Positions 5,397-64,000 of a stretch of 64,000 nt of DNA are shown piece by piece (positions within the stretch are counted from its first letter, which is position 1; each line of letters begins with the position of its first letter). The translations under genes were made by a program, and so were the position numbers. The notes beneath the pieces are model-generated. The model saw only the letters and a program-made list of their open reading frames with translations. It was not told the DNA's origin and did no database searches. Origin of the DNA: Escherichia phage sutha; sequence record PV245934.1. The stretch is one strand, 5' to 3'.

Positions 5397-6566
5397 TTAA
5401 AAATATTTTTTAAAACTCATCATAACTTTATCATCAACATCATTATCAATCTGTGCTACAAGGTAAGATGACAGTTCTACTTCTTGTGGCGCGGATTGAA
5501 CATTATCAGAATTAAGATATTCACGAATCCAAGGATACGGATGTTTAACCGGAGCATCAGTAATTGGGCATGGAAGACCACACTGTTTCATACGAGATAC
5601 AGTTAAGTAATCAATAAAGCTCCACATGCTATTTGTATTTAATCCAGGAACATCGCCATCTTTAAATAAATGAACTGCCCAGTCTTTTTCTTGACGGTTA
5701 ACTTCCATGAAAATATCAACTGCTTCTTGTTCACACTCTTGGGCGATTTTAACCCATTCATCACCATCAGTGCCAAGTTGAAGTTGACGAATAATATATT
5801 GGGTGCCTTTAAGGTGAAGCTGCTCATCACGTGCAATGAACTTCATAATCTTGGCATTACCTTCCATAATTTCCATGTTCTTATGGAAGTTAAAGGTACA
5901 TGCGAAAGATACATAAAAACGAATAGCTTCCAATGCGTTGATTACATGAAGGCAAAGATAAAGAGATTTCATTAGTGCCCGTTTAGTATATTCAACAACT
6001 TTGCCTAGCTCTTCTTTACGAAATCCTTCTGATAAAATTCCTTCATAATCTTCAACCGCATTCTGATATTCACGAGTCTTAACTAGAACATCATCATAAT
6101 AGCGACCAATAGATTCAGCACGTTTCATGATAGCTTTATCTAATACAATCTCATCAAATACCTTTGATGGATCAGTATAAAGATTTCGCATAATATGAGT
6201 ATATGAACGGCTGTGAATAGTTTCGCTAAAAGTCCATGTAGCAACCCATGTATCAAGACTTGGGTCTGAAATTAACGACATAAGTACAGCAGACGGCGCA
6301 CGACCCTGAATGCTATCCAAAAGTGATTGATACTTCAGGTTATTAGTAAAAATATCTTGCTGATATTGAGGAAGCTTGTTAAATTGTGCAGCATCCATCA
6401 TTAAGTTTACTTCTTCAGGACGCCAGAAAAATGATAACTGCTTTTCGGTTAAATCTTCAAAAACTTTATGGCGTTGAATATCATAACGCGCAATACCAAG
6501 ACCTGAACCGAAGAACATAGGTTCTTTTAAAACATCAACTGGATTTGTATTAAAAACTGTGCTCAT
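5397..6566 (-). CDS. nrdB: ribonucleotide reductase small subunit, uninterrupted
   Basis: 389-aa contiguous ORF with di-iron radical protein features; no intron. Confidence 0.9.
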   Translation of the reverse strand: MSTVFNTNPVDVLKEPMFFGSGLGIARYDIQRHKVFEDLTEKQLSFFWRPEEVNLMMDAAQFNKLPQYQQDIFTNNLKYQSLLDSIQGRAPSAVLMSLISDPSLDTWVATWTFSETIHSRSYTHIMRNLYTDPSKVFDEIVLDKAIMKRAESIGRYYDDVLVKTREYQNAVEDYEGILSEGFRKEELGKVVEYTKRALMKSLYLCLHVINALEAIRFYVSFACTFNFHKNMEIMEGNAKIMKFIARDEQLHLKGTQYIIRQLQLGTDGDEWVKIAQECEQEAVDIFMEVNRQEKDWAVHLFKDGDVPGLNTNSMWSFIDYLTVSRMKQCGLPCPITDAPVKHPYPWIREYLNSDNVQSAPQEVELSSYLVAQIDNDVDDKVMMSFKKYF

Positions 6567-6617
6567 AAATTTTCCGCTTAGTTAATAGATAGTGACTCGT
6601 CCGTGAGTCAAATTATA

Positions 6618-8882
6618 TCATAATTTACAGGATGAACAATCTTCAGCTTTTGGAGTTTCTATTTCATAATCATCAGTACCAGAACCATCGCGGGTATTAT
6701 GATAATAGAAATTTTTTCCGCCAAAATACCAAAAATACAAAAGGTCATCAATCATTATTGACATTGGAACCTTTCCTTTTGGAAAAATCTGCGGGTCATA
6801 ATATGTATTTGCTGAAGCTGATTGACATACCCATTTAAGCATAATAGCTACCTGCGTAAGATAAGGTTTATTACCTTTCTTAGCTAATTTCCACGTATAA
6901 TCATAGAGGTCTATGTTATGCTCAATATTGGGCACGACTTGATTAAAGGAACCCTCTTTTGATTCTTTAACAGAGACTGGTCCACGTGGAGGCTCGATAC
7001 CGTTTGTACTGTTAGAAACTTGGGAAGATGACTCACATGGCATAAGTGCTGATAATGTGCTATTACGGATGCCAAAGAGCTTAAGGTCTTCCCGCAGCGA
7101 CGACCAGTCACAAACGTATTTTGGAGCTGCGATTTGGTCAATCTTTTTATTGTACCAGTCGATAGGTAATTCGCCTCGAGACCAACGAGTGTCTGAATAA
7201 TATTCGCAAGGTCCTTTTTCTTTGGCGAGCTTAATGGATGCTTTAATGAGTCCATACTGCAATCTCTCAAATAGTTCATGTGTTAAATCGTTAGCATCTT
7301 CATAAGAAGCAAAGTTACTTGCCAGCCAAGCTGCATAGTTAGTAACACCTACGCCAAGGTTTCGACGCTTTTTAGCTTTTTCTGCTTCAGGAACTGGATA
7401 TCCTTGGTAATCCAAAAGATTATCAAGAGCGCGAACTTGAACTTCTGCTAATTCATTAATTTTATCTTGGTCTTGCCAATCGAAGTTATCCAACACGAAT
7501 GCAGATAACGTACACAATCCAATTTCAGCATCAGGACTATTCACATCATTTGTTGGAATAGCAATTTCACAGCACAAGTTACTCTGACGAATAGGTGCCT
7601 TTTCACGAATAAATGGAGTATAGTTATTCGTATTATCAATGAACTGCACATAAATCCTTGCTGTTCCTGAGCGTTCAGTCATTAGCAATTCAAACAGTTC
7701 ACGTGCTTTAATACGCTTTTTACGAATATTAGGGTCTTTTTCTGCGGCTTCATATAATTCACGGAAACGGTCTTGGTCTTTAAAATAAGAATAATAAAGC
7801 TCGCCACTCATTTCATGCGGACTGAACAAAGTAATGTAGTCGTTCTTTCCAAAACGTTCCATCATCAAATCATTCAGCTGAACGCCATAATCCATATGAC
7901 GGATACGGTTTTCTTCTACGCCTTTGTTATTTTTCAAAACGAGAAGATTTTCAACTTCCAAATGCCAAATAGGATAATAAGCAGTAGCAGCGCCGCCACG
8001 AATTCCACCCTGTGAGCATGATTTAACAGCAGTCTGAAAATGTTTCCAAAAAGGAATAACACCAGTATGGCGTACTTCACCTGTACCAATCTTAGAACCT
8101 TCGGCACGAATCATACCAACGTTAATACCAATTCCAGCGCGTTTGGAGATATATTCAACAATTGAAGCGGAAACCTTATTGATAGACTTCAGCGAATCAC
8201 CTGCCTCAATAACAACACATGAACTAAACTGTCGAGTCGGAGTACGACAACCAGCCATAATAGGAGTTGGTAATGAAATTTGTCGAGTAGATACTGCTTC
8301 ATAAAAACGAATAACATGTTTTAATCTATCAACAGGTTCATCTTGATGTAATGCCATTCCAATAGTCATAAATGCAAACTGTGGAGTTTCATAAATTTGA
8401 CCAGTGGTTTTATCTTTAACGAGATATTTTTCTTTTAATTGCATCGCCCCGGAATAAGTAAATTCCATATCCCGCTCGTGCTTAATTTTTGATTCTAAAA
8501 ATGTAATTTCTTCTGCTGAATATTTTGACAGCAGTTCAGGGTCATATTTACCTTCATTTACACAGTAAGAAATATGGTCAATAAATGAACGTGGTTCATA
8601 TTGCCCATAAACATGCTTACGAAGAGCAAACATTAAACAGCGAGCGGCTACATATTGATAATCAGGCTCTTCAACTGAAATAGAATTCGCAGCAGCCTTA
8701 ATTACAATGGTTTGAATGTCATCAGTGGTCATTCCATCACGGAGATATGATTTAATATTTTCATATAATTCATAAGGATCTACAGATGTTCCTTCGGCTG
8801 CCCAAGATAAAACTTTAATAATTTTTTGTGGATCAAAGCTCTGAGAAACACCACTACTTTTGATAACATTAATTAATTGCAT
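6618..8882 (-). CDS. nrdA: ribonucleotide reductase large subunit
   Basis: MQLINVIKSSGVSQSFDPQKI... 754 aa from internal Met as in T4; ORF track extends 32 codons upstream. Confidence 0.9.
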   Translation of the reverse strand: MQLINVIKSSGVSQSFDPQKIIKVLSWAAEGTSVDPYELYENIKSYLRDGMTTDDIQTIVIKAAANSISVEEPDYQYVAARCLMFALRKHVYGQYEPRSFIDHISYCVNEGKYDPELLSKYSAEEITFLESKIKHERDMEFTYSGAMQLKEKYLVKDKTTGQIYETPQFAFMTIGMALHQDEPVDRLKHVIRFYEAVSTRQISLPTPIMAGCRTPTRQFSSCVVIEAGDSLKSINKVSASIVEYISKRAGIGINVGMIRAEGSKIGTGEVRHTGVIPFWKHFQTAVKSCSQGGIRGGAATAYYPIWHLEVENLLVLKNNKGVEENRIRHMDYGVQLNDLMMERFGKNDYITLFSPHEMSGELYYSYFKDQDRFRELYEAAEKDPNIRKKRIKARELFELLMTERSGTARIYVQFIDNTNNYTPFIREKAPIRQSNLCCEIAIPTNDVNSPDAEIGLCTLSAFVLDNFDWQDQDKINELAEVQVRALDNLLDYQGYPVPEAEKAKKRRNLGVGVTNYAAWLASNFASYEDANDLTHELFERLQYGLIKASIKLAKEKGPCEYYSDTRWSRGELPIDWYNKKIDQIAAPKYVCDWSSLREDLKLFGIRNSTLSALMPCESSSQVSNSTNGIEPPRGPVSVKESKEGSFNQVVPNIEHNIDLYDYTWKLAKKGNKPYLTQVAIMLKWVCQSASANTYYDPQIFPKGKVPMSIMIDDLLYFWYFGGKNFYYHNTRDGSGTDDYEIETPKAEDCSSCKL

Positions 8883-9669: not shown

Positions 9670-9903
9670 AGTTCTACATTCGTCATATTGTTTTTCCGTT
9701 AAAACAGTAATATCATAATAACAATCTGAAGAAGTTTTAACTGTAGAAATTTTATTATCAAAATACTCACGAGTCATTTTATGAGTATAATATTTTTTGC
9801 CATAAATGACAATAGGCTGTTCTGGTCCTGGAACTTCTAACTCGCTTGGATTAGGAAGTGTAAAAAGAACTACACCAGAAGTATCTTTAAATCGTAAAAT
9901 CAT
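9658..9903 (-). CDS. hypothetical protein (81 aa)
   Basis: ORF track; between the endonuclease and td. Confidence 0.4.
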
Positions 9904-9926
9904 ATATCCTCACAATTAATAATTAA

Positions 9927-11815
9927 TTACACCGCCATTTTTCCTTTAATAGAAGGGTGTGATTCGTAACCTTTAAGAACGAAATCTTTAGGCCTGAGTT
10001 TAAGAATGTATTCCAATTGTTCTTTAGTAGAAAGATAGCGGAATTTATAAGGCAATCCGCCTATTACCAGTTCACAAAGCTCTTTAGGTTCACGACGCAA
10101 AATTTCTTTACATTGTTCTACGTGATTCATATAGATATGAGTATTACCGCCAGAAAATATCAAATCTCCTGGAATAAGATTACACATCTTAGCTACAATA
10201 TGAACTAACGCAGCATATGATGCAATGTTGAACGGTAGCATTATGTTCAGATAAGGTCGTTAATCTTATCCCGGAATTATATCCAGCTGCATGTCACCAT
10301 GCAGAGCAGACTATATCTCCAACTTGTTAAAGCAAGTTGTCTATCGTTTCGAGTCACTTGACCCTACTCCCTAAAGGGATAGTCGTTAGGCATTTATGTA
10401 GAACCAATTCCACTTATCAGATTTTACACGGTAAGTAACTAATCCTGATGAAATTTCAAAATGTCTAGCCGCATCGGCTGCACATTCAAAAATAATCCCA
10501 TCGCATGAAATCTTTTTGATGTTAGCTGGCTTTTTGCCTTTCATCTTTTCAGATAGTTTAGTTTTAGTTTTTTCTGAATGTTTGTGATTAAAGAACGGGT
10601 TATTTTCACCTGAACGTTTTCGGCACTTTCCACAAGTATCGGCCGAAGATGGTATGCGAACACCGCATTTACAAAACTTGTGGTTTTCTGGATTCCATCG
10701 GCCATTTTTACTTCCGTGTTTACCATAAAGAGCTTTCCGACCATCAGGACCAAGCTTAAGCATCTTAGCTTTAACAGTTTCAGCTCGTTTCTTAGCAATT
10801 TCTTCTTTTAATGGATGATTTGAAAGCACATCGCCAAAAGACGCATCAGCAATATTATATCCATTAATTTTAGAATTTAGCTCTTTAATCCAAAAATTTT
10901 CTCGTTCAATAATCAAATCTTTCTCATATGGAATTTCTTCCAGTACAGAGCATTCAAAAACATTACCATGTTTATTAAAAGACCTTTGAAATTTTATAGA
11001 AGAGTGAACACCGTTTTCAAGGTCTTTAAAATGTCTCTTCCATCTTTTCTCAAAATCTTTAGCACTTCCAACATACACTTTACCGTTTAAAGTGTTTTTA
11101 ATCTGATAAATTCCGCTTTTCATAAACACCTCTTTTTATATAGAAGTATTTATTAAAGGGTAGTCCTACAATTTAGCACGGGATTGTCTACTAGAGAGGT
11201 TCCCCGTTTAGATAGATTACAAGTATAAGTCACCTTATACTCAGGCCTAAATTAACCTAAGAAAACATCGACACTGCGTTGGTACCATTGTAAATCCAAA
11301 TATCCATTACGCACATTAAACTGATAAAACATATGACAAGGTGGTAATGCCATTTGCTTAAGTTCTGCCGGATTCCATGCTGAAACAATTTGACGTCTAT
11401 CATTTGGCAGTTTTTTAATACGTTCAACAACTTCTATAATTTGATCTACACCACCAAAATCGCGCCACTGTTTTCCATAAATTGGACCAAGTTCACCGCT
11501 ATGGTATCCTAAATCTTTTGCTTGATTTTCGTAATTTTCATCCCAGACTGTTTTGCCTTGAATTAATGAATCATGTTGAATTAATCGCAAATCATTGACA
11601 TTTGTGCTTCCCGATAAAAACCATATTAGCTCAGCAATACAGGCTTTCCACGCTAATTTTTTAGTTGTTACCGCAGGAAAACCTTTAGTTAAATCCCAGC
11701 GTAATTTAGTACCAAACAAAGCAATTGTTCCTGTGCCTGTTCGGTCATCGGTTTCGTAACCATTTTCCAGGATATCTTTAATTAAAAATTGGTATTGTTT
11801 CATTAGTTCATCCAA
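9927..11815 (-). CDS. td: thymidylate synthase, interrupted by group I intron (exon 1 11255-11815, exon 2 9927-10239)
   Basis: Exon 1 ends ...QRSVDVFLG, exon 2 resumes LPFNIASYA...; intron boundaries match the T4 td intron architecture. Confidence 0.85.
10240..11254 (-). mobile_element. td group I self-splicing intron (about 1015 nt) with embedded homing endonuclease ORF
   Basis: Intron 5' sequence TAATTTAGGCCTGAGTATAAGGTGAC... and 3' end ...CATTATGTTCAGATAAGG...AATG as in the T4 td intron. Confidence 0.85.
10386..11123 (-). CDS. I-TevI: intron-encoded GIY-YIG homing endonuclease I-TevI
   Basis: [36 protein letters not shown]..., 245 aa, ends ...KWNWFYINA. Confidence 0.85.
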   Translation of the reverse strand: MKSGIYQIKNTLNGKVYVGSAKDFEKRWKRHFKDLENGVHSSIKFQRSFNKHGNVFECSVLEEIPYEKDLIIERENFWIKELNSKINGYNIADASFGDVLSNHPLKEEIAKKRAETVKAKMLKLGPDGRKALYGKHGSKNGRWNPENHKFCKCGVRIPSSADTCGKCRKRSGENNPFFNHKHSEKTKTKLSEKMKGKKPANIKKISCDGIIFECAADAARHFEISSGLVTYRVKSDKWNWFYINA

Positions 11816-14939: not shown

Positions 14940-15020
14940 TTTTATTTCCTTTTTAATTTAATTAACAGTTGGTGCTATGACGATGTATGACCTCATAGCT
15001 GGTCAGTGAGATAATTATAA
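14940..15020 (-). promoter_or_regulatory. gene 32 translational operator (UUAAA-rich unstructured tract upstream of start)
   Basis: rc sequence TTAATTAAATTAAAAAGGAAATAAAA immediately 5' of the ATG, as in the T4 gp32 autoregulatory site. Confidence 0.55.
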
Positions 15021-15038
15021 TCTATTTATAATAAGCAA

Positions 15039-16282: not shown

Positions 16283-17200
16283 TCAAAATTCATTAATGTT
16301 ATTAGTTAATTTAGAAAGACCCGCTTTTACAAAATATGAATAAATTTTGCCACGCGGTGGTAATTTATATGAATTATAGTAATTCACAATGTTTGAAGCA
16401 ATATTATCAGGAATATAATCAAAATCAATTAGAACTAAATTTTCTTTATATCGATTATATTCAGATTCAGTGAGAAGCACCTTAGCTTGCTCACGGTCAT
16501 TAGCAATAGCTTCAACGATTGAAGTTTTCATTGAAGGAGTTCGTTCACCTTCAACTCTAGTAAACCAAAAGTCAGATCGTACTTTAACTGAAGCAACGTT
16601 ATCCTTTTTGTCACCTTTAAGGATTTTAGTCATACAGTCAATTTCAGCAGAACCGCTTTTAATTTTAACCCATTTCTTGTGCATCGGTGACCATTGCTTA
16701 ACATTTGGGTATTTGTGAAGTTGAGTAAAGTCACCATCCGACGAAATGATTAAAATCTTATGTCCTTCTAAAGAGAACTTTTTAACCAAAACAGCAATAT
16801 GGTCATCTGCTTCATACTTATCAATATCCATAACGATGTATGGCATATAAGCTTTCAATTCATCTATAACTTTATGACTGGATTCAAAATAACCTTCCCA
16901 GTCCCAAGTAGATTCTTCTCGTGCTTTTCCACGGTTTTTCTTATAATAATAAGCAAAATCACGACGCCAGTATCCAGATTTCGCGTTATCAATACACAAT
17001 ACAATTTTAGTGTATCCAAGAGTTTTTGCTTTTTTGACATTAAACTTAATTGAGTTCAATATCAAATGACGAACCATTGATAAATTAATTTTTTCTTTAT
17101 CTGGGAAGTTTACCAAAGCAGTTGAAAGCGCAATTTGACTAAAGTCAATTAAGCAGATTCCTTCTTTGTAATCTTCATCCAGCATCATTTCTAAATCCAT
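16283..17200 (-). CDS. rnh: RNase H (5'-3' exonuclease, FEN family)
   Basis: MDLEMMLDEDYKEGICLIDFSQIALSTALV... 305 aa from internal Met. Confidence 0.9.
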   Translation of the reverse strand: MDLEMMLDEDYKEGICLIDFSQIALSTALVNFPDKEKINLSMVRHLILNSIKFNVKKAKTLGYTKIVLCIDNAKSGYWRRDFAYYYKKNRGKAREESTWDWEGYFESSHKVIDELKAYMPYIVMDIDKYEADDHIAVLVKKFSLEGHKILIISSDGDFTQLHKYPNVKQWSPMHKKWVKIKSGSAEIDCMTKILKGDKKDNVASVKVRSDFWFTRVEGERTPSMKTSIVEAIANDREQAKVLLTESEYNRYKENLVLIDFDYIPDNIASNIVNYYNSYKLPPRGKIYSYFVKAGLSKLTNNINEF

Positions 17201-17225
17201 ATGAACCTCGTTCAATTAGTGAGAT

Positions 17226-17259
17226 TTCTATTATATACCATCCGAATCTTAAAGTAAAC
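17226..17259 (-). promoter_or_regulatory. T4 early-type promoter upstream of rnh
   Basis: rc GTTTAC at 17254-17259, 17-nt spacer, TGGTATATAAT. Confidence 0.55.
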
Positions 17260-17262
17260 AAG

Positions 17263-17270
17263 TATAAATA
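17263..17270 (+). promoter_or_regulatory. T4 late promoter box TATAAATA for gene 34
   Basis: TATAAATA about 35 nt upstream of gene 34 ATG, divergent from the rnh early promoter. Confidence 0.6.
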
Positions 17271-17304
17271 CTTATTATTGAAAACACAATAGGAGCCCGG
17301 GAGA

Positions 17305-20300
17305 ATGGCCGAGATTAAAAGAAAGTTCAGAGCAGAAGACGGTCTGGACGCAGGTGGCGATAAAATAATCAACGTAGCTTTAGCTGATCGTACCGTAGGA
17401 ACTGACGGTGTTAACGTTGATTACCTAATTCAAGAAAACACAGTTCAACAATACGATCCAACTCGTGGATATTTAAAAGATTTTGTAATCATTTATGATA
17501 ACCGCTTTTGGGCTGCTATAAATGATATTCCAAAACCGGCAGGAGCTTTTAATAGTGGACGCTGGAGAGCATTACGTACAGATGCTAACTGGATTACAGT
17601 CTCATCTGGTTCATATCAATTAAAATCTGGTGAAGCTATTTCGGTTAACACTGCAGCTGGTAATGATATTACATTTACTTTGCCATCTACCCCAATTGAT
17701 GGTGATACTATCGTTCTCCAAGACATTGGAGGAAAACCTGGGGTTAACCAAGTTTTAATTGCAGCTTCAGTACAAAGTATTGTAAACTTTAGAGGTGAAC
17801 AAGTACGTTCAGTACTAATGACTCATCCAAAGTCGCAGTTAGTTTTAATTTTTAGTAATCGTCTGTGGCAAATGTATGTAGCTGATTATAGTAGAGAAGC
17901 TGTAGTTGTAACACCAGCGAATACTTATCAAGCGCAATCCAACGATTTTATCGTACGTAGATTTACTTCTGCTGCACCAATTAATGTTAAACTTCCAAGA
18001 TTTGCTAATCATGGCGATATTATTAATTTCGTCGATTTAGATAAACTAAATCCGCTTTATCATACAATTGTTACTACATACGATGAAACGACTTCAATAC
18101 AAGAAGTTGGAACTCATTCCATTGAAGGCCGTACAACGATTGACGGTTTCTTGATGTTTGATGATAATGAGAAATTGTGGAGATTGTTTGACGGGGATAG
18201 TAAAGCGCGTTTACGCATTATAACGACTAATTCTAATATTCGTCCAAATGAAGAAGTTATGGTATTTGGTGCGAATAACGGAACAGCTCAGACAATTGAA
18301 CTTCAGCTTCCGACTGATATTTCTGTTGGTGATACTGTCAAAATTTCCATGAATTACATGCGAAAAGGACAAACAGTTAAAATCAAAGCTGCCGGTGAAG
18401 ATAAAATTGCTTCTTCAGTTCAATTGCTGCAATTCCCAAAACGTTCAGAATATCCGCCTGAAGCTGAATGGGTAACTGTTCAAGAATTAGTTTTTAACGG
18501 TGAAACTAATTATGTTCCAGTTTTACAACTTGCTTATATAGAAGATTCTGACGGAAAATACTGGGTTGTACAACAAAACGTTCCAACCGTAGAAAGAGTT
18601 GATTCTTTGAATGATTCTACTAGAGCAAGATTAGGCGTGATTGCTTTAGCTACACAAGCGCAAGCTAATGTCGATTTAGAAAATTCTCCACAAAAAGAAT
18701 TAGCAATTACTCCAGAAACATTAGCTAACCGTACTGCTACAGAAACTCGTAGAGGTATCGCAAGAATAGCAACTACTGCTCAAGTGAATCAGAACACTAC
18801 ATTCTCTTTTGCTGACGATATTATCATCACTCCTAAAAAGCTGAATGAAAGAACTGCTACAGAAACTCGCAGAGGTGTTGCTGAAATTGCGACACAGCAA
18901 GAAACTAATGCAGGTACTGATGATACTACAATCATCACTCCTAAAAAGCTTCAAGCTCGTCAAGGTTCTGAATCATTATCTGGTATCGTAACCTTTGTAT
19001 CTACCGCAGGAGCTACTCCAGCTTCTAGCCGTGAATTAAATGGTACAAATGTTTACAATAAAAACACTAATAATTTAGTCGTTTCGCCTAAAGCTCTGGA
19101 TCAGTATAAAGCTACTCCAACACAGCAAGGTGCAGTAATTTTAGCAGTTGAAAGTGAAGTAATTGCTGGACAAAGCCAAGAAGGATGGGCAAATGCGGTT
19201 GTAACACCAGAAACGTTACATAAAAAGACATCAACTGATGGAAGAATTGGTTTAATTGAAATTGCTACGCAAAGTGAAGTTAATACAGGAACTGATTATA
19301 CTCGTGCAGTCACTCCTAAAACTTTAAATGACCGTATAGCAACTGAAAGTTTAAGTGGTATAGCTGAAATTGCTGCACAAGTTGAATTCGACGCAGGCGT
19401 CGACGATACTCGTATCTCTACACCATTAAAAATTAAAACTAGATTTAATAGTACTGATCGTACTTCTGTTGTTGCTCTATCTGGATTAGTTGAATCAGGA
19501 ACTCTCTGGGACCATTATACCCTTAATATTCTTGAAGCAAATGAGACACAGCGTGGTACACTTCGTGTGGCTACACAAGTTGAAGCTGCTGCAGGAACAT
19601 TAGATAATGTTTTAATAACTCCTAAAAAGCTTTTAGGTACTAAATCTACTGAAGCACAGGAAGGTGTTATTAAAGTTGCAACTCAGTCTGAAACTGTGAC
19701 TGGAACGTCAGCAAATACTGCTGTATCTCCAAAAAATTTAAAATGGATTGTGCAGAGTGAACCTACTTGGGCAGCTACTACTGCGATAAGAGGCTTTGTT
19801 AAAACTTCATCTGGTTCAATTACATTCGTTGGTAATGATACAGTTGGTTCAACGCAGTCGTTAGAATTATACGAGAAAAATAGCTATGCAGTATCACCGT
19901 ATGAATTAAACCGTGTATTAGCAAATTATTTGCCATTAAAAGCAAAAGCTGCTGACGCAAATTTATTAGATGGCCTAGATTCATCTCAGTTCATTCGTAG
20001 GGACATTGCACAGACGGTTAATGGTTCACTAACCTTAACCCAACAAACGAATCTGAGTGCCCCTCTTGTATCATCTAGTACTGCTACGTTTGGTGGTTCA
20101 GTTTCGGTAAATAGTACATTAACTATTTCTAATACTGGAACGGCAACTCGTCTGATTTTTGAAAAAGGACCTCAAACTGGAACTAACCCAGCACAGACAA
20201 TGAGCATCCGTGTATGGGGTAACCAGTATGGTGGCGGTTCAGATACAACACGTTCTACCGTATTTGAAGTTGGTGATGAAACGTCTAATCACTTTTATTC

Positions 20301-23031: not shown

Positions 23032-26000
23032 ATGGCTACTTTAAAACAAATACAATTTAAAAGAAGCAAAACTGCAGGTGCACGTCCTGCTGCTTCAGTA
23101 TTAGCCGAAGGTGAATTGGCTATAAACTTAAAAGATAGAACAATTTTTACTAAAGATGATTCAGGAAATATCATTGATTTAAGCATTTCCGCTGGCGGTA
23201 ATATCAGTGGAAATATCACTCAAACTGGCGATTATTTACAAAATGGAACATATAATCTTAATGGAAACCAGTTTGTTTATGCAGGAAAATATATTGAATT
23301 TTTACCTAAAACTGCTGGCAATGGTGCTTGGGCAAATCAACACAAAAATAAAGCTCCTATCTTTACCGATTTGAGTTCAACGACTTCTACTTCAGAATAC
23401 CATCCGCTAATTAAACAACGCTATAAAGATGGAACTTTTTCTGTTGGTACGTTAGTAAACGAAGGTAGTTTTAAAATTCAATATATCAATGAATCTGGTG
23501 ATTCAAAATATTGGACTTTTAATCGTAACGGTAGTTTTATTGTAGATAATGGCAGTATTGAAGTCCGTGCAGGTAATATTTCTGCATCAGGCAATATTAA
23601 CTCGGCAACTGGATTTGTTTCTGCACCGCGCGTCAATACAAAAAATATTAACCTGAGTTCTAAAACCTTTATACCGAATAATGACACGGGTTATGACATT
23701 GTTTCTTTACCTACTTGGATTTATAATCCACCAGCAGATGGTTCTGACCGTGATACAAACGGATTGAACTACATGCGTAAAATGCGGGCTTCAAATACTT
23801 CTAGCATTTTCCATGAAGTAGTTGACTGTCGTTCGGGAAAACCACAAGAAATTTCTTGGTGGACCGGCGTAGGACCTTCATCTTTCCAGTGGGCGTTTGA
23901 TACCTCTGGACGTATTACCGCAGGTAAATCTATTTCAGTAGGTCTTCCTGATAGTGGTACAAATGGTCGTTATCCTTTAGATTCTGCAATTTCTATTGGT
24001 ATTGCGATTGGCGATAACGATACCGGTATTAAATGGGTCCGCGATGGCGTTTATGACCTGATGGCTAACGGTATTTCATCCGCTACCATTTTGAATAATG
24101 GTATTAATAGTACTAAAAAATTGATGGTTGGTTATAGCCGTGATTCCGGCTCTACTTGGGATTTCCCAAATAACAACCAAGCAATGTTTACTGCGCGTAC
24201 CGATATTGATGGTAATAATAACGGCGATGGTCAGACTCATATTGGTTATAGCAGCAATTCTAAAATGTATCACTATTTCCGTGGCACGGGTCGTATGGCT
24301 GTCGGAATGGCTGAAGGTTTAATTGTTGAGCCGGGTATTTTAGATATTAAAACTGGGTCCAATAGAGTTGCTATTAGAGCAGATGGCACATTTGACTCAA
24401 CCCAACGTATTTCAATGCGTACTGGATTATTTTTATCAGGTGATGATAATACCAATGCTTTGTCATTTAAAGCGCCTACAGGTGTTGACGGGACAAAAAC
24501 CATTAACTGGGATGCAGGCACTCGTAATGGTCAGAATAAAAATACTGTAACCATTAAAGCGTGGGGTAACTCATTTAACTCAACTCCAGGTAATAGAGAA
24601 ACTGTATTCGAAGTTTCAGATTCACAAGGTTATTATTTCTACGCTCAACGCACTAATCCTGCGTCAGGTCAAACAGTAGGTCCGGTTAACTTTAAATTTA
24701 ACGGAACTGTCGAAACAGGCCATATCATAGGCCTTGGAAATATAAGTGCCTCCGGTACAGGTTCTTTCGGTGGCAATGTTACCATGTCTAAAGGTTTGTT
24801 TGTCCAAGGTGGTTCTTCTATTACTGGACAAGTTAAAATCGGCGGAACTGCTGATGCATTAAGAATTTGGAATGCTGAATATGGTGCTATTTTCCGTCGC
24901 TCGGAAAGTAATCTTTATATTATCCCGACTCCTAAAGGTGCTGGTGAAAGTGGTGGAATAAGTAATCTCCGCCCATTAAGTATTAGTCTTAATAATGGTA
25001 TGGTACAAATGCGCCATTCTGTTACATTAGGTGATGATGGGTTAGGCGGCAATATGGTTACTGTTGATAATGATAGTAAACTTGTCGTGGTAACTTCTAA
25101 TACCAGATTAAGCCCTAATTTCCGCATGCAAATAGGCCACTCGTCTTATATTGATGTTGAATGCACTAACTCTGTTCGCCCGGCAGGTGCTGGTTCGTTT
25201 GCTTCACAGAATAACGAAAATATTCGTGCACCGTTCTATATGAATATCGACCGTGGTGATAATAGTACTTATATTCCAATTTTGAAGCAACGTTACGTTC
25301 AAGGAGATAGTACTTATTCTATTGGTACCTTGATTTCTCAGGGAGACTTCCGCGTCCATTATCACCAGGGAACTAGCACCAATGGCGTAGATTTGGGTTG
25401 GGAATTCCGTCGCACAGGCGATTTCCGCGCGGCAGGTAAAATTATTGCCGGCGCTGCCACTCTTGGCACTGATGGTAATATTACTGGTGGTTCTGGTAAT
25501 TTTGCTAACTTAAACAGTACAATTGAATCACTTAAAACTGATATTGTTTCAAGTTATCCTATTGGAGCTCCAATTCCATGGCCTACAGATACTCCTCCTA
25601 ACGGTTACGCTATTATGGAAGGTCAGACCTTTGATAAGTCTGCATATCCAAAGCTAGCTGTTGCATATCCTAGCGGTGTTATTCCAGATATGCGCGGGCA
25701 AACTATCAAAGGTAAACCAAGTGGTCGTGCTGTTTTGAGCACAGAAGAAGATGGTGTTAAGGCTCATAGCCATAGCGCATCTGCTTCAAGTACTGACTTA
25801 GGCACTAAAACCACATCAAGCTTTGACTATGGTACGAAGAACACTAATAGTACTGGTGCTCACACTCACTCTGTAAGTGGTACAACAAGTGCTGCTGGTA
25901 ACCACGCTCATCACTTAGGTCTACTATTAGTTAACGGCGGTGCTGCTTTGTACGGTTATACAACCATTGGTAACAGTCTACCTAGAACACTTGACTGGCT

Positions 26001-26232
26001 TGACAGAAGAGACAATAAGTTCCCTAACACTAACACAACTGGTAACCATACACACACATGGTCTGGTACTACAAGCGGTGCTGGTGACCATTCCCACTCT
26101 GTAGGTATTGGTGCTCATACCCACACGGTAGCGATTGGTTCGCATGGTCATACTATCACTGTAAATAGTACAGGTAATACAGAAAACACGGTTAAAAACA
26201 TTGCTTTTAACTATATCGTTCGTTTAGCATAA
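23032..26232 (+). CDS. 37: long tail fibre distal subunit / receptor-binding protein gp37 (T4-type tip with His-box repeats)
   Basis: [13 protein letters not shown]... N-terminus and C-terminal GxHxH repeats ...[11 protein letters not shown] as T4 gp37; 1066 aa with divergent central region. Confidence 0.9.
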
Positions 26233-38596: not shown

Positions 38597-40416
38597 TACT
38601 GGCTCATCCATTCTTTGCGAAGGTCAGCATTATCTCCCATGAGCATTTCAAAAAGCTCTTTCCAGTTCTCAGGAAGTTTAACAACATCATATACTGGATT
38701 TTGAATCATCTCACGATATTCAGATTTTTCCAACGAGCCAAGTCCCTTAATATAGCGGATGCTATGTTTAGGTAGAGCATCTTTGGCACTCTCATATTCA
38801 GCGACTGTATAAAACCATTCTTGTTTTTTACCGACCTGAGCGATGATTACAGGAGTTTTGACAAAGCGAATTCGTCCTTGCTCAAACAATTCTGGCCAAT
38901 TACTAAAAAATCCGAGCAGAGAAGGATAAATGCTTCCTAGACCATCATGGTCAGCATCAGTCATAATAGCAATATTATGATAATTCAAGTTTTCAGCTTT
39001 TTCACCAAGAACTAATCCAGTGATTGCGCAAATATCAAATAGTTCTTTGTTTTTAAGCATATCTGCATAAGACATACCCCAACTATTGAGAACTTTACCG
39101 CGTAATGGATAACCACCGTGAAGTTCTTTATCACGAACATCAATAAGATATCCGATAGCAGAATCACCCTCAGTCAAGAAAAGAGTAGTGTCAGCATCTT
39201 TACCACAAAGATTCGCTTTGATATGTTTATGAACCTTAGCTTTAGAAGCCTTTTTAGCTGCTTTAGTTTCTGCTGCTTTTTCTGCCGCCAATTTACGAGC
39301 CAAAGCAGCTTCAATAATCGGCATTAGAATTGCTTCATTATTTAGAATAGCACGTGAAATCTTTTTAGCATCAAGTTGAATATGACTACGAATTTCACCA
39401 AAAGGAGAAGTAAGTCGTTCTTTAGTTTGAGAATCAAATCGCATGTTTTTCATATCACGAACAAACATAACGATAGTCAAACATTCTTTAACGCGTGCTT
39501 TAGTTACATCAATTTTGAACTTACGTTTGATTTGTGGAATAAGGTCTTCACAAATATCATCCATCACACAGTCAATGTGATGGCCACCATTCTTAGTGTG
39601 AATGTTATTGACGTATGTTAATTGACGAAATCCATCCGGTGAACGACCAACCGCAATAGAACAATTTTCTTGTTCTTGAACAATAGCATGCTCATCATAT
39701 TGGCGTGCATATTTCTTAAAATTGCCCTGAACCTTTTTACCATTAAAGGTAAATTGAATATCAGGATAAACAACAGCAAGTGTCTGGAGACGATCTAGTG
39801 TAATGTCAAGATAAACCTGAGATAGCTCATTAGTTTCAAATGACATAAAATCAGGAATGAAAGTAACACGGGTTCCTTTCCATTTTCCAGGAATATCTTC
39901 CCATGATTTATTTTCCATGCCATTTGAACAACGAACTACAATATTATTTTGACCATCGCCAGTTTCACCGACAAACATCACAGAAAAAATGTTTGTCAAA
40001 CTAGAACCAACACCATTCATACCGCCAGTGACGCGTTCTTTATCATCACCGAAGTTACCACCTGCTTTTGGAATAGTCCATGCAGCAACAGGACCAGGAA
40101 TTTCTTCACCGGTAGGTGTTTTAACCATCGCCTGTGGAATACCGCGACCGTTATCTTCAACTGTTACTTGATTGTTTTTAATAGTAACATTAATTTTATT
40201 TGCGAATTTAAACTTAGTACGAATACCTTCATCTACTGAGTTATCGATAATTTCATCAATAAGCTTAACAAGACCAGGTACATACTGAACACTTTCCCAT
40301 TTACCAAACAGAAAGCGCTCATGCATTTCATTAGCTGAAGAGCCAATGTACATGCCGCTACGCTTTTTGATATGTTCAATATCGCTCAGAATTTTAATTT
40401 CATTCTTAATCATCAC
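38596..40416 (-). CDS. 39: DNA topoisomerase II large subunit gp39 (GyrB-like ATPase), unsplit
   Basis: 606 aa contiguous ORF; GHKL ATPase and TOPRIM motifs. Confidence 0.9.
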   Translation of the reverse strand: MMIKNEIKILSDIEHIKKRSGMYIGSSANEMHERFLFGKWESVQYVPGLVKLIDEIIDNSVDEGIRTKFKFANKINVTIKNNQVTVEDNGRGIPQAMVKTPTGEEIPGPVAAWTIPKAGGNFGDDKERVTGGMNGVGSSLTNIFSVMFVGETGDGQNNIVVRCSNGMENKSWEDIPGKWKGTRVTFIPDFMSFETNELSQVYLDITLDRLQTLAVVYPDIQFTFNGKKVQGNFKKYARQYDEHAIVQEQENCSIAVGRSPDGFRQLTYVNNIHTKNGGHHIDCVMDDICEDLIPQIKRKFKIDVTKARVKECLTIVMFVRDMKNMRFDSQTKERLTSPFGEIRSHIQLDAKKISRAILNNEAILMPIIEAALARKLAAEKAAETKAAKKASKAKVHKHIKANLCGKDADTTLFLTEGDSAIGYLIDVRDKELHGGYPLRGKVLNSWGMSYADMLKNKELFDICAITGLVLGEKAENLNYHNIAIMTDADHDGLGSIYPSLLGFFSNWPELFEQGRIRFVKTPVIIAQVGKKQEWFYTVAEYESAKDALPKHSIRYIKGLGSLEKSEYREMIQNPVYDVVKLPENWKELFEMLMGDNADLRKEWMSQ

Positions 40417-51003: not shown

Positions 51004-51011
51004 TTTATATC
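51004..51011 (-). promoter_or_regulatory. T4 late promoter box (rc TATAAATA) for soc
   Basis: rc GATATAAATAATC about 30 nt upstream of soc ATG. Confidence 0.55.
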
Positions 51012-51179
51012 AGTCTTCAACGAAAACTTGTGCCAGGAATTCATGTTCATCTTGAATTTGTTTATATAAAGCCATTACAGCATTTATATTAGAGCTATCT
51101 ACTTTAAGCTGATAAGCATACCACTCGTATAAATTAATTAAAGCTTTTTGACGTCTAATAAATTCTTCTTTGGATATTT

Positions 51180-51380
51180 TCATTTTGAATGTTCTATAAT
51201 TAATTTTAAGGCTTCTTCGCTGACAAAAATTTCATCAGGACCTTCTTCTACAACCCAATCAACCACACGAAGCTGATTAGATAAGAGCTCGCATACGAGC
51301 TCTTTGTCATAATTTTTAAATAGCTGGTCAATACGTTTCTTGCGGGCTTTCTTAAGCTGGCGTTTATTTAAACGAGCCAT
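51180..51380 (-). CDS. hypothetical protein (66 aa)
   Basis: ORF track. Confidence 0.4.
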   Translation of the reverse strand: MARLNKRQLKKARKKRIDQLFKNYDKELVCELLSNQLRVVDWVVEEGPDEIFVSEEALKLIIEHSK

Positions 51381-51898
51381 TAATAACCTCGATCTTGACG
51401 AGCGAAGTTTTCAGCATTCTTCAAATAATAAAGTTTAAAGATTTCTTCAGCCGTAAGACCGAGACCTTGGAACATGTTCAGAACGAAATGAAGAATATCA
51501 ATCATTTCAAATTTAATTTCCAACTGGTCTTGAGGAGACAAATCAGTAATTAGAGTTTCACGACGTTCACCATGCTGCGACTTCCAAGGCTTCCATACAG
51601 CAGATGCATCTTTTTCACCATTGCTCATACCACCAAGAGAAGTCAGAAGTTCACGGAATTCATCATCAATGTAATCTTTCTGATTACGCAGCCAATCAAC
51701 AACTTCGCCTGCAGTAGCCAAATCATCAGGATGACGGTTATATTCAGGTTTATCTTTAGCTAAACGAACCTGCAAAGATTTCTGCATATCAAGCATAACC
51801 TGCAGCGGGTCTTTTTCATCACCGAGAATATCCCAATATTCGTTTTGAGCTTTATCAGCGCCTTCGATCAGTTGTGAACATTCATTAAAGTATGCCAT
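51380..51898 (-). CDS. 56: dCTPase / dCTP pyrophosphatase gp56
   Basis: About 172 aa from internal Met MAYFNECSQLIEGADKAQNEYW...; MazG-like; ORF track extends 31 codons upstream. Confidence 0.8.
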   Translation of the reverse strand: MAYFNECSQLIEGADKAQNEYWDILGDEKDPLQVMLDMQKSLQVRLAKDKPEYNRHPDDLATAGEVVDWLRNQKDYIDDEFRELLTSLGGMSNGEKDASAVWKPWKSQHGERRETLITDLSPQDQLEIKFEMIDILHFVLNMFQGLGLTAEEIFKLYYLKNAENFARQDRGY

Positions 51899-51929
51899 TA
51901 TTTTTCCTTTCAATTCATGGATTAGTAGA

Positions 51930-51960
51930 TTAATTATACAATAAATATATAAAGCAATAA
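51930..51960 (-). promoter_or_regulatory. T4 middle promoter (MotA box plus -10) for gene 56
   Basis: rc TTGCTTTA (MotA box) then 12 nt then TATAAT. Confidence 0.5.
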
Positions 51961-51969
51961 GGAGGACAT

Positions 51970-52170
51970 ATGGTACAAAAATTAATGGCACTTGTTAATG
52001 CCATCAAAGGTAATAAAAAACGTATAGCTTTTACTATTTCTGCTATGATAGGAATTTTACTTTGGAATTTTGTTTTATCGCCAGTTGCTCTTGCTCATGG
52101 CGTTAGTATTCCAGTAATTACTCTTGATACATTCGTAGATTTAGCATTTGCTTTAGTTGGGTTAATTTAA
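51970..52170 (+). CDS. small hydrophobic protein (66 aa) on opposite strand, between 56 and 61
   Basis: Strong SD AAGGAGGA 7 nt upstream of ATG; two predicted TM helices; convergent with gene 61 stop. Confidence 0.4.
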   Translation: MVQKLMALVNAIKGNKKRIAFTISAMIGILLWNFVLSPVALAHGVSIPVITLDTFVDLAFALVGLI

Positions 52171-56687: not shown

Positions 56688-57800
56688 TTACTTTCTGGAG
56701 ATTTTAAATTTTTCAACCTTTGAGTTAATCAATTCATCAACTTCAGCTTCAACAATTTCATTACTATCAATAGCACCTAACTGATAAGCACGTTTAATAG
56801 CATCTCGGAATGGTTGATGCTTAAATAAAGGACCCCAGAATGTAGTGCAATTGGTATCTTTTGCACGCCAAGATTTTTCTTCGCGAATCATCTCACCGGT
56901 TTCTTCATCAAGAAATTCACGAGCATACCAACCATTTTTAGGTTTTACTACAAATCCTAATTCAAGAGCCATATCTAACAATCCAGAATAAGGATCGATA
57001 CCACCGTCAAATTTAACATCAATAAAGAATTTACTTTTTTCTTTGACGGTACGAGATTTTTCTACATTTAGAACAAATTGATACCCCTGAAGATCAGAAC
57101 CATCTTTAATCTGGCGCTTACCGATAATGAATACAGTATCAGCCGAATACATTACGCCTGTACCACCTGTCATCACGGTTTTACTAAACATTTCAATTGT
57201 TTCAATTGTATGGTTAACCGCAACACATGGAATGTTTTTAATACTAAAATAAGGAGTAACAATACGGAATAATGACTTCAGTGATTTAGCACGAGTCATA
57301 TCTGCCACAGATTTTTCATTCAAGGCATCTTCCGTTTCTTTCTTAGAAGCCATATTACCAATTGAGTCGATGAATACAATAACCTTTTCACCACGCTCAA
57401 TAGCTTCAAGCTGATTCACCATATCAATTTTCAGCTGTTCAACTGACTGAATTGGCGTATGAATTACTCGTTCCGGGTCAACCCCCATGGATCGCAAATA
57501 AGCTGGAGTAATACCAAATTCGCTATCATAGAATAGACAAACTGCATCAGGATATTTGTTCAAATATGCCGCAACCATAGTCAAAGACATATTTGATTTA
57601 AAGTGTTTAGAAGGCCCTGCGAAAATAGTTAAACCAGACTGCATACCGCCATTAATCGCACCAGAAATAGCAATATTAAGCATTGGAATTTTTGTACGAA
57701 TTACATCCTTTTCATTAAAGAATTTAGATGTAGTCAGTTCAGCAGTCATTTTAGAAGTGGAAGCTTTAATCAAACGGGATTTTAAATCTGCAATAGACAT
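56688..57800 (-). CDS. uvsX: UvsX recombinase (RecA homologue), C-terminally truncated by apparent frameshift
   Basis: MSIADLKSRLIKASTSK..., 370 aa ending ...KVEKFKISRK; shifted frame continues to a stop at about 56622. Confidence 0.85.
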   Translation of the reverse strand: MSIADLKSRLIKASTSKMTAELTTSKFFNEKDVIRTKIPMLNIAISGAINGGMQSGLTIFAGPSKHFKSNMSLTMVAAYLNKYPDAVCLFYDSEFGITPAYLRSMGVDPERVIHTPIQSVEQLKIDMVNQLEAIERGEKVIVFIDSIGNMASKKETEDALNEKSVADMTRAKSLKSLFRIVTPYFSIKNIPCVAVNHTIETIEMFSKTVMTGGTGVMYSADTVFIIGKRQIKDGSDLQGYQFVLNVEKSRTVKEKSKFFIDVKFDGGIDPYSGLLDMALELGFVVKPKNGWYAREFLDEETGEMIREEKSWRAKDTNCTTFWGPLFKHQPFRDAIKRAYQLGAIDSNEIVEAEVDELINSKVEKFKISRK

Positions 57801-57878
57801 TCATTTTTTTCCATAGGCATCATTATATTTTCCTCACTGGTTAAAGATAGAGTAATTATAACACAATAAATTTAGGCA

Positions 57879-58727
57879 TTAATCAACTGCTATTGGATGA
57901 ATAGCATTAAACTTATGAAATGCTTCTGATTTTTCTTTACGCGAAACACACATGCGAAGAACCTTTAGTGGTTCATCTTCTTCACCCAACGATTTTCGTT
58001 TTTCAATATTCGATGTTTTCCAACGAGCTTGCTCTGGAAACTCTCTATTGATTTGTTCAAGCGCTCTATTATGTTTAGAATTACTACGAATTGAACTACA
58101 CCCGCCAGGAGCTTGTGCTTTTCCAGATACAACTAGATATTTGAACAAGGCCAAATGCGGATAACCTTGATTAATTAAATTGAGAAATGCATACATATCT
58201 TCGCATAAATCAATTTTTCCATACCCAATTTGTTCTGTAGTAAGTTTTCCAAGGTCATACCATGTATTCGTGAATCCATATGAGTTTTCACGATAATTAC
58301 CCCAAGATGAAGTAATTTTAAAAATTGGTAGACGAGCATGGCCATGATAATACCCGCAATCCATGGCATCCTCAACGTATTGAATCAATTCATAGAACTG
58401 TTCACGAGTTAATTGATTAATTTTATCTACACATCGGCGATCATCTCTTTTTCGCATTGAACTCATACGAATAGTAGTATCATCGTCAATCATCCAGATT
58501 CGTTGACCTGCATACATATCAGTAATTGCTTTACGAGTACCGGCAATTCCATTAACATCATCAGGAATAGTTACAATTTTAGCTTTAGACCCGTAAGCGT
58601 CATAATAAGCTTTTTCTTCATGTTCACGTACTACAATATGGGGTTCATAATCAGTCGGAAACATATCAAGGGCAGAAACTGCCCCTACGCGTTGATAACT
58701 TGGAATTACGAATTGAATCATTTCCAC
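57879..58727 (-). CDS. glycosyltransferase (DXD-motif), at the locus of T4 beta-glucosyltransferase
   Basis: 282 aa with IWMIDDDTTI motif; does not match T4 beta-gt sequence or length (351 aa). Confidence 0.55.
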   Translation of the reverse strand: MEMIQFVIPSYQRVGAVSALDMFPTDYEPHIVVREHEEKAYYDAYGSKAKIVTIPDDVNGIAGTRKAITDMYAGQRIWMIDDDTTIRMSSMRKRDDRRCVDKINQLTREQFYELIQYVEDAMDCGYYHGHARLPIFKITSSWGNYRENSYGFTNTWYDLGKLTTEQIGYGKIDLCEDMYAFLNLINQGYPHLALFKYLVVSGKAQAPGGCSSIRSNSKHNRALEQINREFPEQARWKTSNIEKRKSLGEEDEPLKVLRMCVSRKEKSEAFHKFNAIHPIAVD

Positions 58728-59458
58728 TCACCATTATAATCTTTTTTCGCAATATGAGTTTCGCCAGTTTTCCACCAATGGTCAACCAAATAAAAATGAC
58801 GGGAATACACATGAAGACTTCCGACATTCCATATAATGGAACCTGCTTTATACTGACGAGTTGAATCGCCTGCATTCAAATCAGATACTAATTTATCTAA
58901 TACGTATTTTTGCCATGCATAATCATTACGGAATCCGAAGACCACGTCATTTGAGCGCATGCTTACTACTGCATTGACTTTCTTATCACGAATCAGGTAC
59001 TGTACTGTATTCGTACACATGAAATCTGACATACCATTTTTATTGTAGTCAAATTGCATGGATGGACGAGTATAAATCATGATACCACGTCGAGAATCAG
59101 GATTTTGACCAAGTTCAGCTAAACACATGTCATATTGAGCATAGTTATCTTCTGACCAGATAGCCCAACCATAATTCGAGTTAATTTCACCTTTAGAAGA
59201 TGCTACCTGCTGCCAAATCTTTGGTGTTTCACCTGGAATATCTTTAACAAACAGACTTTGAGACTTGTACCATTCAAGTTCACGCTGAATGTATTCATCA
59301 TTAAGAGCGCCAAAAATAAACGGTTCATCTGCTACAAATGATGCGCCAATAATTTCAATAGTTTTAACACCAGTTTTATCAACTACGAAATCTTTTTCTT
59401 TTAATGCAAGCCCCAAATGAAGACGGATTTCTTCAACTGTCAAAGAGTCACTAATCAT
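58718..59458 (-). CDS. 42: dCMP hydroxymethylase gp42
   Basis: 246 aa, thymidylate-synthase-like fold signature. Confidence 0.85.
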   Translation of the reverse strand: MISDSLTVEEIRLHLGLALKEKDFVVDKTGVKTIEIIGASFVADEPFIFGALNDEYIQRELEWYKSQSLFVKDIPGETPKIWQQVASSKGEINSNYGWAIWSEDNYAQYDMCLAELGQNPDSRRGIMIYTRPSMQFDYNKNGMSDFMCTNTVQYLIRDKKVNAVVSMRSNDVVFGFRNDYAWQKYVLDKLVSDLNAGDSTRQYKAGSIIWNVGSLHVYSRHFYLVDHWWKTGETHIAKKDYNGEWK

Positions 59459-59465
59459 TTAAACC

Positions 59466-59615
59466 TCAATTGATACATTCATATTTAACTTGTAACAGTA
59501 ATAAACCCCAACCTAAAATAATAGTTGGAATCATAAGAGGAACCGTTACACTATAGTATATACTTATTATAACCATCAAGATTAAAAGCAATGCTGTTAT
59601 AATTTTGCTTTTCAT
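59466..59615 (-). CDS. small hydrophobic membrane protein (49 aa), below ORF-track cutoff
   Basis: MKSKIITALLLILMVIISIYYSVTVPLMIPTIILGWGLLLLQVKYECIN; ATG overlaps imm stop. Confidence 0.35.
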   Translation of the reverse strand: MKSKIITALLLILMVIISIYYSVTVPLMIPTIILGWGLLLLQVKYECIN

Positions 59616-59863
59616 TCCTTCTCTCTGATGATAATTACCTGATTTGGCTGCGCAGACTTTTTAGTTTCACCTGCAATTGACCAAATAAATGTAATAAACC
59701 AACCAATAATTGACCAGTTAAACAGTAAAGATGTGAAAAAGATTCCTACTGTCGATTTTGACCCACGCATCAAGGCGATAAACCATGGAAGCATGTATAT
59801 AATAATAGCCAACACGCCTGAAACTAAAACCATAAAAATTGAACCTGCTACTAAAGTTTCCAT
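59612..59863 (-). CDS. imm: immunity protein Imm (superinfection exclusion membrane protein)
   Basis: 83 aa, two TM helices; position between 42 and 43. Confidence 0.75.
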   Translation of the reverse strand: METLVAGSIFMVLVSGVLAIIIYMLPWFIALMRGSKSTVGIFFTSLLFNWSIIGWFITFIWSIAGETKKSAQPNQVIIIREKE

Positions 59864-60261: not shown

Positions 60262-60510
60262 TCAAATACAAGTAGTAATTACTCCAGTAGTGCTTACACA
60301 GATATTACCTAATTGAACACCCAGCGTTCCATTAGTATTCATATGAAGATTATCATCAATTTTTGTTGATACTTTACCATTCATGTGAATAACAGTATTA
60401 GATTCAATCACATTCTGAGTATCATTTTCAATATCAATAAATGGAACAGCTGCTAATGCAACTAAACACACTGCTAAGCAACCATAAACAATTTTCATTT
60501 TATTCTCCAA
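60262..60510 (-). CDS. hypothetical secreted protein (82 aa)
   Basis: N-terminal signal-like hydrophobic segment. Confidence 0.4.
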   Translation of the reverse strand: MENKMKIVYGCLAVCLVALAAVPFIDIENDTQNVIESNTVIHMNGKVSTKIDDNLHMNTNGTLGVQLGNICVSTTGVITTCI

Positions 60511-63827: not shown

Positions 63828-64000
63828 TTACCATTTCAATGCTAGTTTTTTGAGTTGTTTCTGTTCTTTTACGTTCTTAGTCACTTCTTTCAAAAAATCA
63901 TCCGTGACTAAACCTTTTAGTTCTTTTAATACTAAAGGAAGTTTTCCATTTTTAGTAAGAATTGATTTATAGTTAATTGCATCATTTGTATTAACTTGAT
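63828..64000 (-). CDS. 62: clamp-loader subunit gp62, C-terminal fragment (partial; start beyond window end)
   Basis: Open minus-strand frame entering window and stopping at 63828 with stop overlapping regA ATG; assignment by T4 synteny only. Confidence 0.45.

Follow-up and report, generated by a model that had tools for sequence, protein, structure and literature searches.

The ggt reading frame between gene 42 and uvsX

The window, i.e. the whole stretch of 64,000 nucleotides analysed, contains an uninterrupted open reading frame at 57879..58727 on the minus strand, encoding 282 aa from a GTG codon according to the ORF list. It is flanked by its downstream neighbour uvsX (56688..57800, minus strand; placed by the ORF list, comparison of the C-terminus and DNA alignment) and by gene 42 (58718..59458, minus strand; ORF list), with imm and gene 43 lying further on. 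An earlier note on this DNA had described a 282-aa protein carrying the sequence IWMIDDDTTI between uvsX and gene 42, and both the frame and the motif are found there. The length has to be revised: a frame starting at the GTG does exist, but the ATG at 58721..58719 is most likely the true start, resulting in a coding sequence for ggt (beta-alpha-gt, TAGT) at 57879..58721 on the minus strand, ending in a TAA stop codon (57881..57879) and encoding 280 instead of 282 aa. We favour this start because the ATG shares the tetranucleotide ATGA with the TGA stop codon of gene 42 (58720..58718) and is preceded by GGTGAG, and because the orthologues of T2, JLBYU24, EH2 and TB37 are annotated in the 280-aa ATG form; the in-frame GTG at 58727, two codons upstream of the ATG, shows no Shine-Dalgarno-like sequence. 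The arrangement indicates ggt being translationally coupled to gene 42.

A terminator scan of 57600..59700 yielded one hairpin, located within the 5' end of ggt (58667..58687, minus strand, about codons 12-18), with a 9-bp stem GGGGCAGTTTCTGCCCT followed by a T-rich run. The hairpin is also kept in T2 and T6, and the fPS-65 record has a 'terminator' annotated somewhere beneath its ggt match; such a structure might attenuate read-through from gene 42. Promoter-like sites are not in excess in the same interval, with 11 sites compared to 10.8 in shuffled sequence. Just past the ggt stop codon, at 57855..57878 (minus strand) and inside the cassette differing from T4, the sequence reads AATGCCTAA, 11 nt and TG-T-TATAAT. 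This may represent a middle promoter of the T4 MotA-box type, its -10 element being extended, and could serve uvsX.

The DDD residues (D79-D80-D81) are encoded by GAC GAT GAT at 58487..58479 (58479..58487, minus strand) and form a DxD-type motif with a predicted role in binding of the metal and the nucleotide sugar. In the family alignment they are invariant among homologues down to about 30% identity. A sequence search against solved structures gave no meaningful match (best E = 1.2; no relative with a solved structure), and we therefore took the evidence on the fold from a structure model. Confidence in the model is moderate, as pLDDT values drop below 50 at residues 126-151 and in several stretches of the C-terminal part. 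It predicts a GT-A fold with the DDD motif at the end of a core beta strand (predicted strand 74-77), as is the case in GT-A enzymes, and shows no two-Rossmann-domain GT-B architecture. By analogy with inverting GT2 enzymes, the invariant D175 within the sequence CEDMY might serve as catalytic base.

A 947-bp segment without counterpart in T4

In blastn comparisons, the window matches T2 and T6 collinearly from gene 41 through imm.1, at about 96.7% identity. Homology to T4 ends at window position 57788 and restarts at 58736, as seen by blastn and junction alignments. Comparison with T4, T2 and T6, together with a map of the whole window, thus delimits a segment of 947 bp (57789..58735) lacking a T4 counterpart and replacing 1941 bp of T4 (23556..25496), i.e. 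segA and beta-gt. One edge lies upstream of uvsX, 6 nt from the T4 start codon, and the other within gene 42, 18 nt ahead of its stop codon. As T4 homology restarts only there, the last residues of gp42 differ, the C-terminus reading ...DYNGEWK in the window vs ...DYVGKYA in T4. In tblastn searches neither alpha-gt, beta-gt nor segA was detected within the 64-kb window (E > 1; for alpha-gt E > 4).

The uvsX frame yields 370 aa rather than 391-393, since the A-run at about 56702..56705 holds one A too many (AAATTTAAAATCTCC in the window vs AAATTTAAATCTCC in T2, T4, T6 and JLBYU24), removing the acidic C-terminal tail SPESKSKSAADLETDLEQLSDMEEFNE; either uvsX is truly truncated or the homopolymer was sequenced wrongly. 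A second additional A is located in the spacer between ggt and uvsX at about 57804..57810, just upstream of the uvsX start (GGAAAAAAATGAATG vs GGAAAAAATGAATG in T2 and T6). The presence of two homopolymer insertions within 1.1 kb suggests errors of homopolymer sequencing, assembly or base-calling. The assembly may thus contain errors; the ggt protein is nonetheless reproduced exactly in the independent isolate Tequatrovirus NIC06P2 (280 of 280 residues identical).

Further differences from T4 are spread over the window. T4 dam (T4 16846..17625) has no counterpart, tblastn with T4 Dam finding nothing in the window, and this segment therefore encodes no Dam adenine methyltransferase; the dam site corresponds to 51938..51959 between gene 56 and gene 61, where about 900 bp are missing relative to T4. 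The dam gene of T4 is found in only some other phages of Tequatrovirus (PMC13390438). Also missing compared to T4 are the nrdB intron with I-TevIII, nrdB.1 with mobE, segG, the gene 60/60.1/mobA insertion and segF, the deficits having their junctions at 5899/5902, 6566-6622, 15002-15038, 38931-38996 and 51009-51380. Since the gene 60/60.1/mobA insertion is absent, the topoisomerase subunit is probably encoded by one fused gene, as annotated in JLBYU24. Gene 56, beside the segF site, shows 76% DNA identity to T4. The td region (9678..11804; 91% identity) has the same length as in T4, so that td probably contains its group I intron with I-TevI. Across the whole window, a scan at Rfam gathering thresholds returned no family and a tRNA scan returned nothing. 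We also observed a 49-aa membrane-like ORF (59466..59615, minus strand) between gene 42 and imm, where T4 DNA is about 97% identical and has no annotated gene, while relatives have it annotated (JLBYU24_47; PF26865 in the relatives L011 and L012), and an 82-aa membrane-like ORF (60262..60510, minus strand) between imm.1 and gene 43, the DNA of which is absent from T4. The distal part of the tail fibre gene 37 (23181..26025) shows 72-78% identity to T4 or no match, with flanks at about 94-96%, a host-range mosaic as is usual for T-even phages.

Family assignment, hmC pathway and distribution among relatives

The earlier note had proposed a profile search against glycosyltransferase families, and this search assigns the protein to PF20691 (TET-associated glycosyltransferase, TAGT) with 37.5 bits at a gathering cut-off of 27.5 bits, covering profile positions 2-205 of 205. 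It also matches PHROG 842, 'beta-glucosyl-HMC-alpha-glucosyltransferase', with E = 1e-89. The protein is identical to the T2 ggt product in 275 of 280 residues (98%), to the annotated product of T6 record MH550421 in 255 of 261 (98%) and to the TAGT enzymes of EH2 and TB37 in 277 of 280, both phages being among the DNA matches (H13 and H35). Near-identity and position at the same locus identify it as the orthologue of the T2/T6 enzyme. The family match, the invariant DDD motif and the GT-A fold model all agree with the suggestion of a DXD-type nucleotide-sugar transferase. We therefore assign the gene, at a probability of about 0.95, as the T2/T6-type beta-glucosyl-HMC-alpha-glucosyltransferase (ggt, beta-alpha-GT, TAGT; PF20691), which adds a second glucose to glucosylated hmC. 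None of the evidence found contradicts this assignment. Of the two example enzymes named in the note, the T2/T6-type second-sugar transferase fits, whereas the arabinosyl-type enzyme does not.

The genomic position equals that of T4 beta-gt, and many database records carry the label 'beta glucosyl transferase', which could be read as pointing to a diverged T4-type beta-glucosyltransferase placing a single beta-glucose directly onto hmC. However, similarity to T4 beta-gt is not detectable (BLASTP E = 3.4), confirming the lack of resemblance noted from the sequence, and there is no match to PF09198 at E up to 1, while the genuine beta-gt of relative L011 scores 214 bits for this profile. Moreover, the GT-A model differs from the GT-B fold of T4 beta-gt (PMC13216743), beta-glucosyl-hmC is absent from phages with a TAGT gene (PMC13390438), and L011 and L012 carry TAGT and beta-gt adjacent to each other as separate families. 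Tests of both sequence and fold refute this explanation, and we assign it practically no probability. Both outcomes that would have spoken against the note, a protein outside the sugar transferases or a standard T4 beta-gt, thus came out negative.

The genes for supplying hmC are in place. Gene 42 encodes a dCMP hydroxymethylase of 246 aa, making the hmC precursor, and is intact, with 96.3% protein identity to T4 gp42 over 245 aa. Gene 56 (51383..51991, minus strand) encodes a dCTPase/dUTPase, being 73% identical to T4 gp56 and 75% to the JLBYU24 homologue in tblastn. Both gp42 (96%) and gp56 (73%) align to their T4 counterparts over the full length. With gene 42 and gene 56 present, the DNA should therefore be built with hmC.

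These data also bear on the proposal that the enzyme transfers a different sugar, e.g. arabinose as in RB69-like Mosigvirus, or forms a different linkage, so that the DNA would be modified in another way than in T2, T6 or T4. DxD-containing GT-A enzymes use many donors, the fold does not reveal donor specificity, and K46, V50 and I101 differ from the chemically characterised enzymes of EH2 and TB37. These three differences are, however, conservative and lie outside the invariant positions, and gp42 matches the hmC synthase of T4 at 96% identity, while Mosigvirus arabinosylation starts from 5-hydroxy-dC, using a distinct synthase, other transferases and a sugar-precursor cluster (PMC13390438). 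We consider a different sugar or linkage highly improbable. The arabinosyl-type pathway of Mosigvirus, as described in PMC13390438, is rejected: instead of a 5-hodCMP synthase the window encodes a T4-like gp42, and the gene order is that of T2/T6.

In JLBYU24, T2 and T6, alpha-gt is located about 12.2 kb beyond ggt, which places the equivalent position at about 70,100, roughly 6 kb outside the window, which ends at 64,000. We found alpha-gt at the expected place in every relative examined, i.e. JLBYU24, T2, T6, NIC06P2 and all four contigs with an identical gp43 (about 96-98% DNA identity), these four encoding a 400-aa PF11440 alpha-gt; in NIC06P2, carrying the identical TAGT allele, alpha-gt is 99% identical to that of T2. 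This suggests alpha-gt also being present in the phage's own genome. It could be argued that ggt is non-functional, either decaying or deprived of alpha-gt, resulting in DNA with only hmC or only alpha-glucosyl-hmC, as both public T6 records carry ggt lesions (MH550421, AP018814), the adjoining uvsX is frameshifted in the window and alpha-gt is not visible in it. The intact ORF retaining every invariant family residue and the coupled start, the identity of the protein to that of an independent isolate, and the position of alpha-gt just beyond the window end in the relatives make a loss of function highly improbable. We likewise see only a slim chance that the phage lacks alpha-gt or that the K46/V50/I101 allele has a changed acceptor or donor, in which case TAGT might act alone or form an unusual glycan or, in a milder form, produce mono- and di-glucosylated hmC in unusual proportions; acting alone was suggested for distant TAGTs in phages without alpha- or beta-GT (PMC13216743).

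A second-glucose transferase of the T2/T6 type, flanked by uvsX and gene 42, is a well-known and ordinary feature. In the phage collection, ggt is found over at least 80% of its length in 478 phage records, of which 474 reach at least 90% DNA identity; this presence and the PHROG match exclude a chance ORF. T4-type beta-gt occurs in 29 records, mostly T4 stocks. For alpha-gt there are 503 records, nearly the sum of 478 and 29. In a published set of 753 phages with T-even-type glycosyltransferases, only six pair alpha-GT with beta-GT, while most pair one of these with TAGT (PMC13216743). The combination of alpha-gt and TAGT hence is the majority arrangement in Tequatrovirus and T4 the unusual genome. 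The earlier note had described a glycosyltransferase swap at the beta-gt locus: a non-T4 enzyme is indeed encoded there, but the T4-centric framing does not hold at 478 vs 29 records. Database labels for ggt include 'hypothetical protein', 'beta glucosyl transferase' and 'alpha-glucosyl-transferase'.

The locus varies among relatives. L011 (14405..16967), which has an identical DNA polymerase protein, carries a 213-aa ORF, a 283-aa TAGT and a T4-type beta-gt in tandem and also has alpha-gt, i.e. three glycosyltransferases. L012 (14412..16335), also with an identical DNA polymerase protein, carries TAGT plus a split beta-gt, and NIC06P2 (L014, 9363..10004) the 213-aa ORF and TAGT. The 213-aa ORF of L011 and NIC06P2, located between gene 42 and TAGT, shows a sub-threshold NUMOD3 match and perhaps encodes a homing endonuclease. 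Judged from these relatives, the interval from gene 42 to uvsX is a hot spot for cassettes. The present analysis establishes the identity of ggt, its family and fold class, the conservation of its motif, the boundaries of the cassette and the distribution of the gene.

Expected DNA modification and comparison with known phages

We propose a model according to which gp56 would keep dCTP out of the nucleotide pool and gp42 would supply the hmC precursor, resulting in hmC DNA. Alpha-gt, expected beyond the window, would place an alpha-linked glucose onto part of the hmC residues, and TAGT would transfer glucose from UDP-glucose in a beta-1,6-linkage onto this first glucose, forming gentiobiosyl-hmC. 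The DDD motif would hold the divalent metal, with D175 probably acting as general base. The virion DNA would thus contain a mixture of bare hmC, alpha-glucosyl-hmC and gentiobiosyl-hmC but no beta-glucosyl-hmC, differing from T4 in the presence of the disaccharide and the absence of beta-monoglucosyl-hmC. For the glucose transfer chemistry and the link from gene to product, the model relies on published work on enzymes being 98-99% identical (PMC13390438, PMC11078745). The T2/T6 enzyme glucosylates hmC that is already alpha-glucosylated, yielding gentiobiosyl-hmC (PMC13216743), and deletion of the T6 gene results in DNA with only alpha-glucosyl-hmC and in a more Brig1-sensitive phage (PMC11078745); the same deletion was employed in PMC13160076. 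For seven Durham Tequatrovirus phages, EH2 and TB37 among them, HPLC/MS revealed about one third 5-hmdC and about two thirds alpha-5-gentiobiosylmethyl-dC, the alpha-monoglucosyl form being present in traces and the beta-glucosyl form absent, and the authors named the TAGT gene as syntenic with T4 beta-GT (PMC13390438).

Gentiobiosyl-hmC amounts to about 5% in T2 and about 72% in T6 (PMC13390438, PMC11078745, PMC13160076). The enzymes of T2 and T6 are about 97-98% identical to each other and each 98% identical to the window enzyme, and as near-identical enzymes result in 5% vs 72%, the proportion cannot be read from the sequence. All three T2 records examined (L004, L018, L019) carry R11H and P251S (ggt codons 11 and 251), and in the TAGT family alignment R11 is invariant and P251 nearly invariant. 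These substitutions may explain the low gentiobiosyl fraction of T2 compared to T6. Since the window allele retains R11 and P251, like EH2 and TB37, we lean towards a high gentiobiosyl fraction, EH2- or T6-like rather than T2-like. In T6 record MH550421 (L003, 4924..4980), ggt codon 10 is changed from CAG to TAG, the product being annotated from M20 with 261 aa, and in T6 record AP018814 (L009, 1635..2474) an in-frame deletion of 3 nt drops one Asp of the DDD motif, leaving 279 aa. Both public T6 genomes thus have differing ggt lesions, which is odd for a phage cited as 72% gentiobiosylated.

The host defences to which a T-even phage is vulnerable depend on the sugar pattern of its hmC. DNA containing gentiobiosyl-hmC resists the Brig1 glycosylase in vitro (PMC11078745), and the deglucosylase BapA leaves the glucose of gentiobiosyl-hmC in place (PMC13160076), while GmrSD-type enzymes still target gentiobiosyl-hmC (PMC13216743). 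Phages of the T2/T6-TAGT type keep about one quarter to one third of the sites as bare hmC, a target for hmC-specific enzymes (PMC13390438, PMC13160076). The practical value of the ggt finding lies in correct annotation and in predicting the modification type for host range or phage therapy; it opens no new biological question.

Compared with known systems, T4 beta-gt (PF09198) shares with ggt the genomic slot, the donor UDP-glucose according to the literature, and the decoration of hmC against host nucleases. It differs in having an unrelated sequence, a GT-B instead of the GT-A fold modelled for ggt, and bare hmC instead of alpha-glucosyl-hmC as acceptor; segA, a homing endonuclease gene, is furthermore part of the T4 cassette and missing from the window. 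With T2/T6 ggt the gene shares 98% protein identity, the length of 280 aa, the slot between gene 42 and uvsX, the ATGA coupling to gene 42, the DDD motif, the family and the fold class. From window to T2 the enzymes differ by R11H, K46R, V50I, I101V and P251S, for which the sequence supports no functional difference. The TAGT enzymes of the Durham-collection phages EH2 and TB37 agree in 277 of 280 residues and in synteny, their characterised genomes having no beta-gt, and differ by the three conservative substitutions K46R, V50I and I101V, the DNA chemistry determined by HPLC/MS being that of EH2 and TB37.
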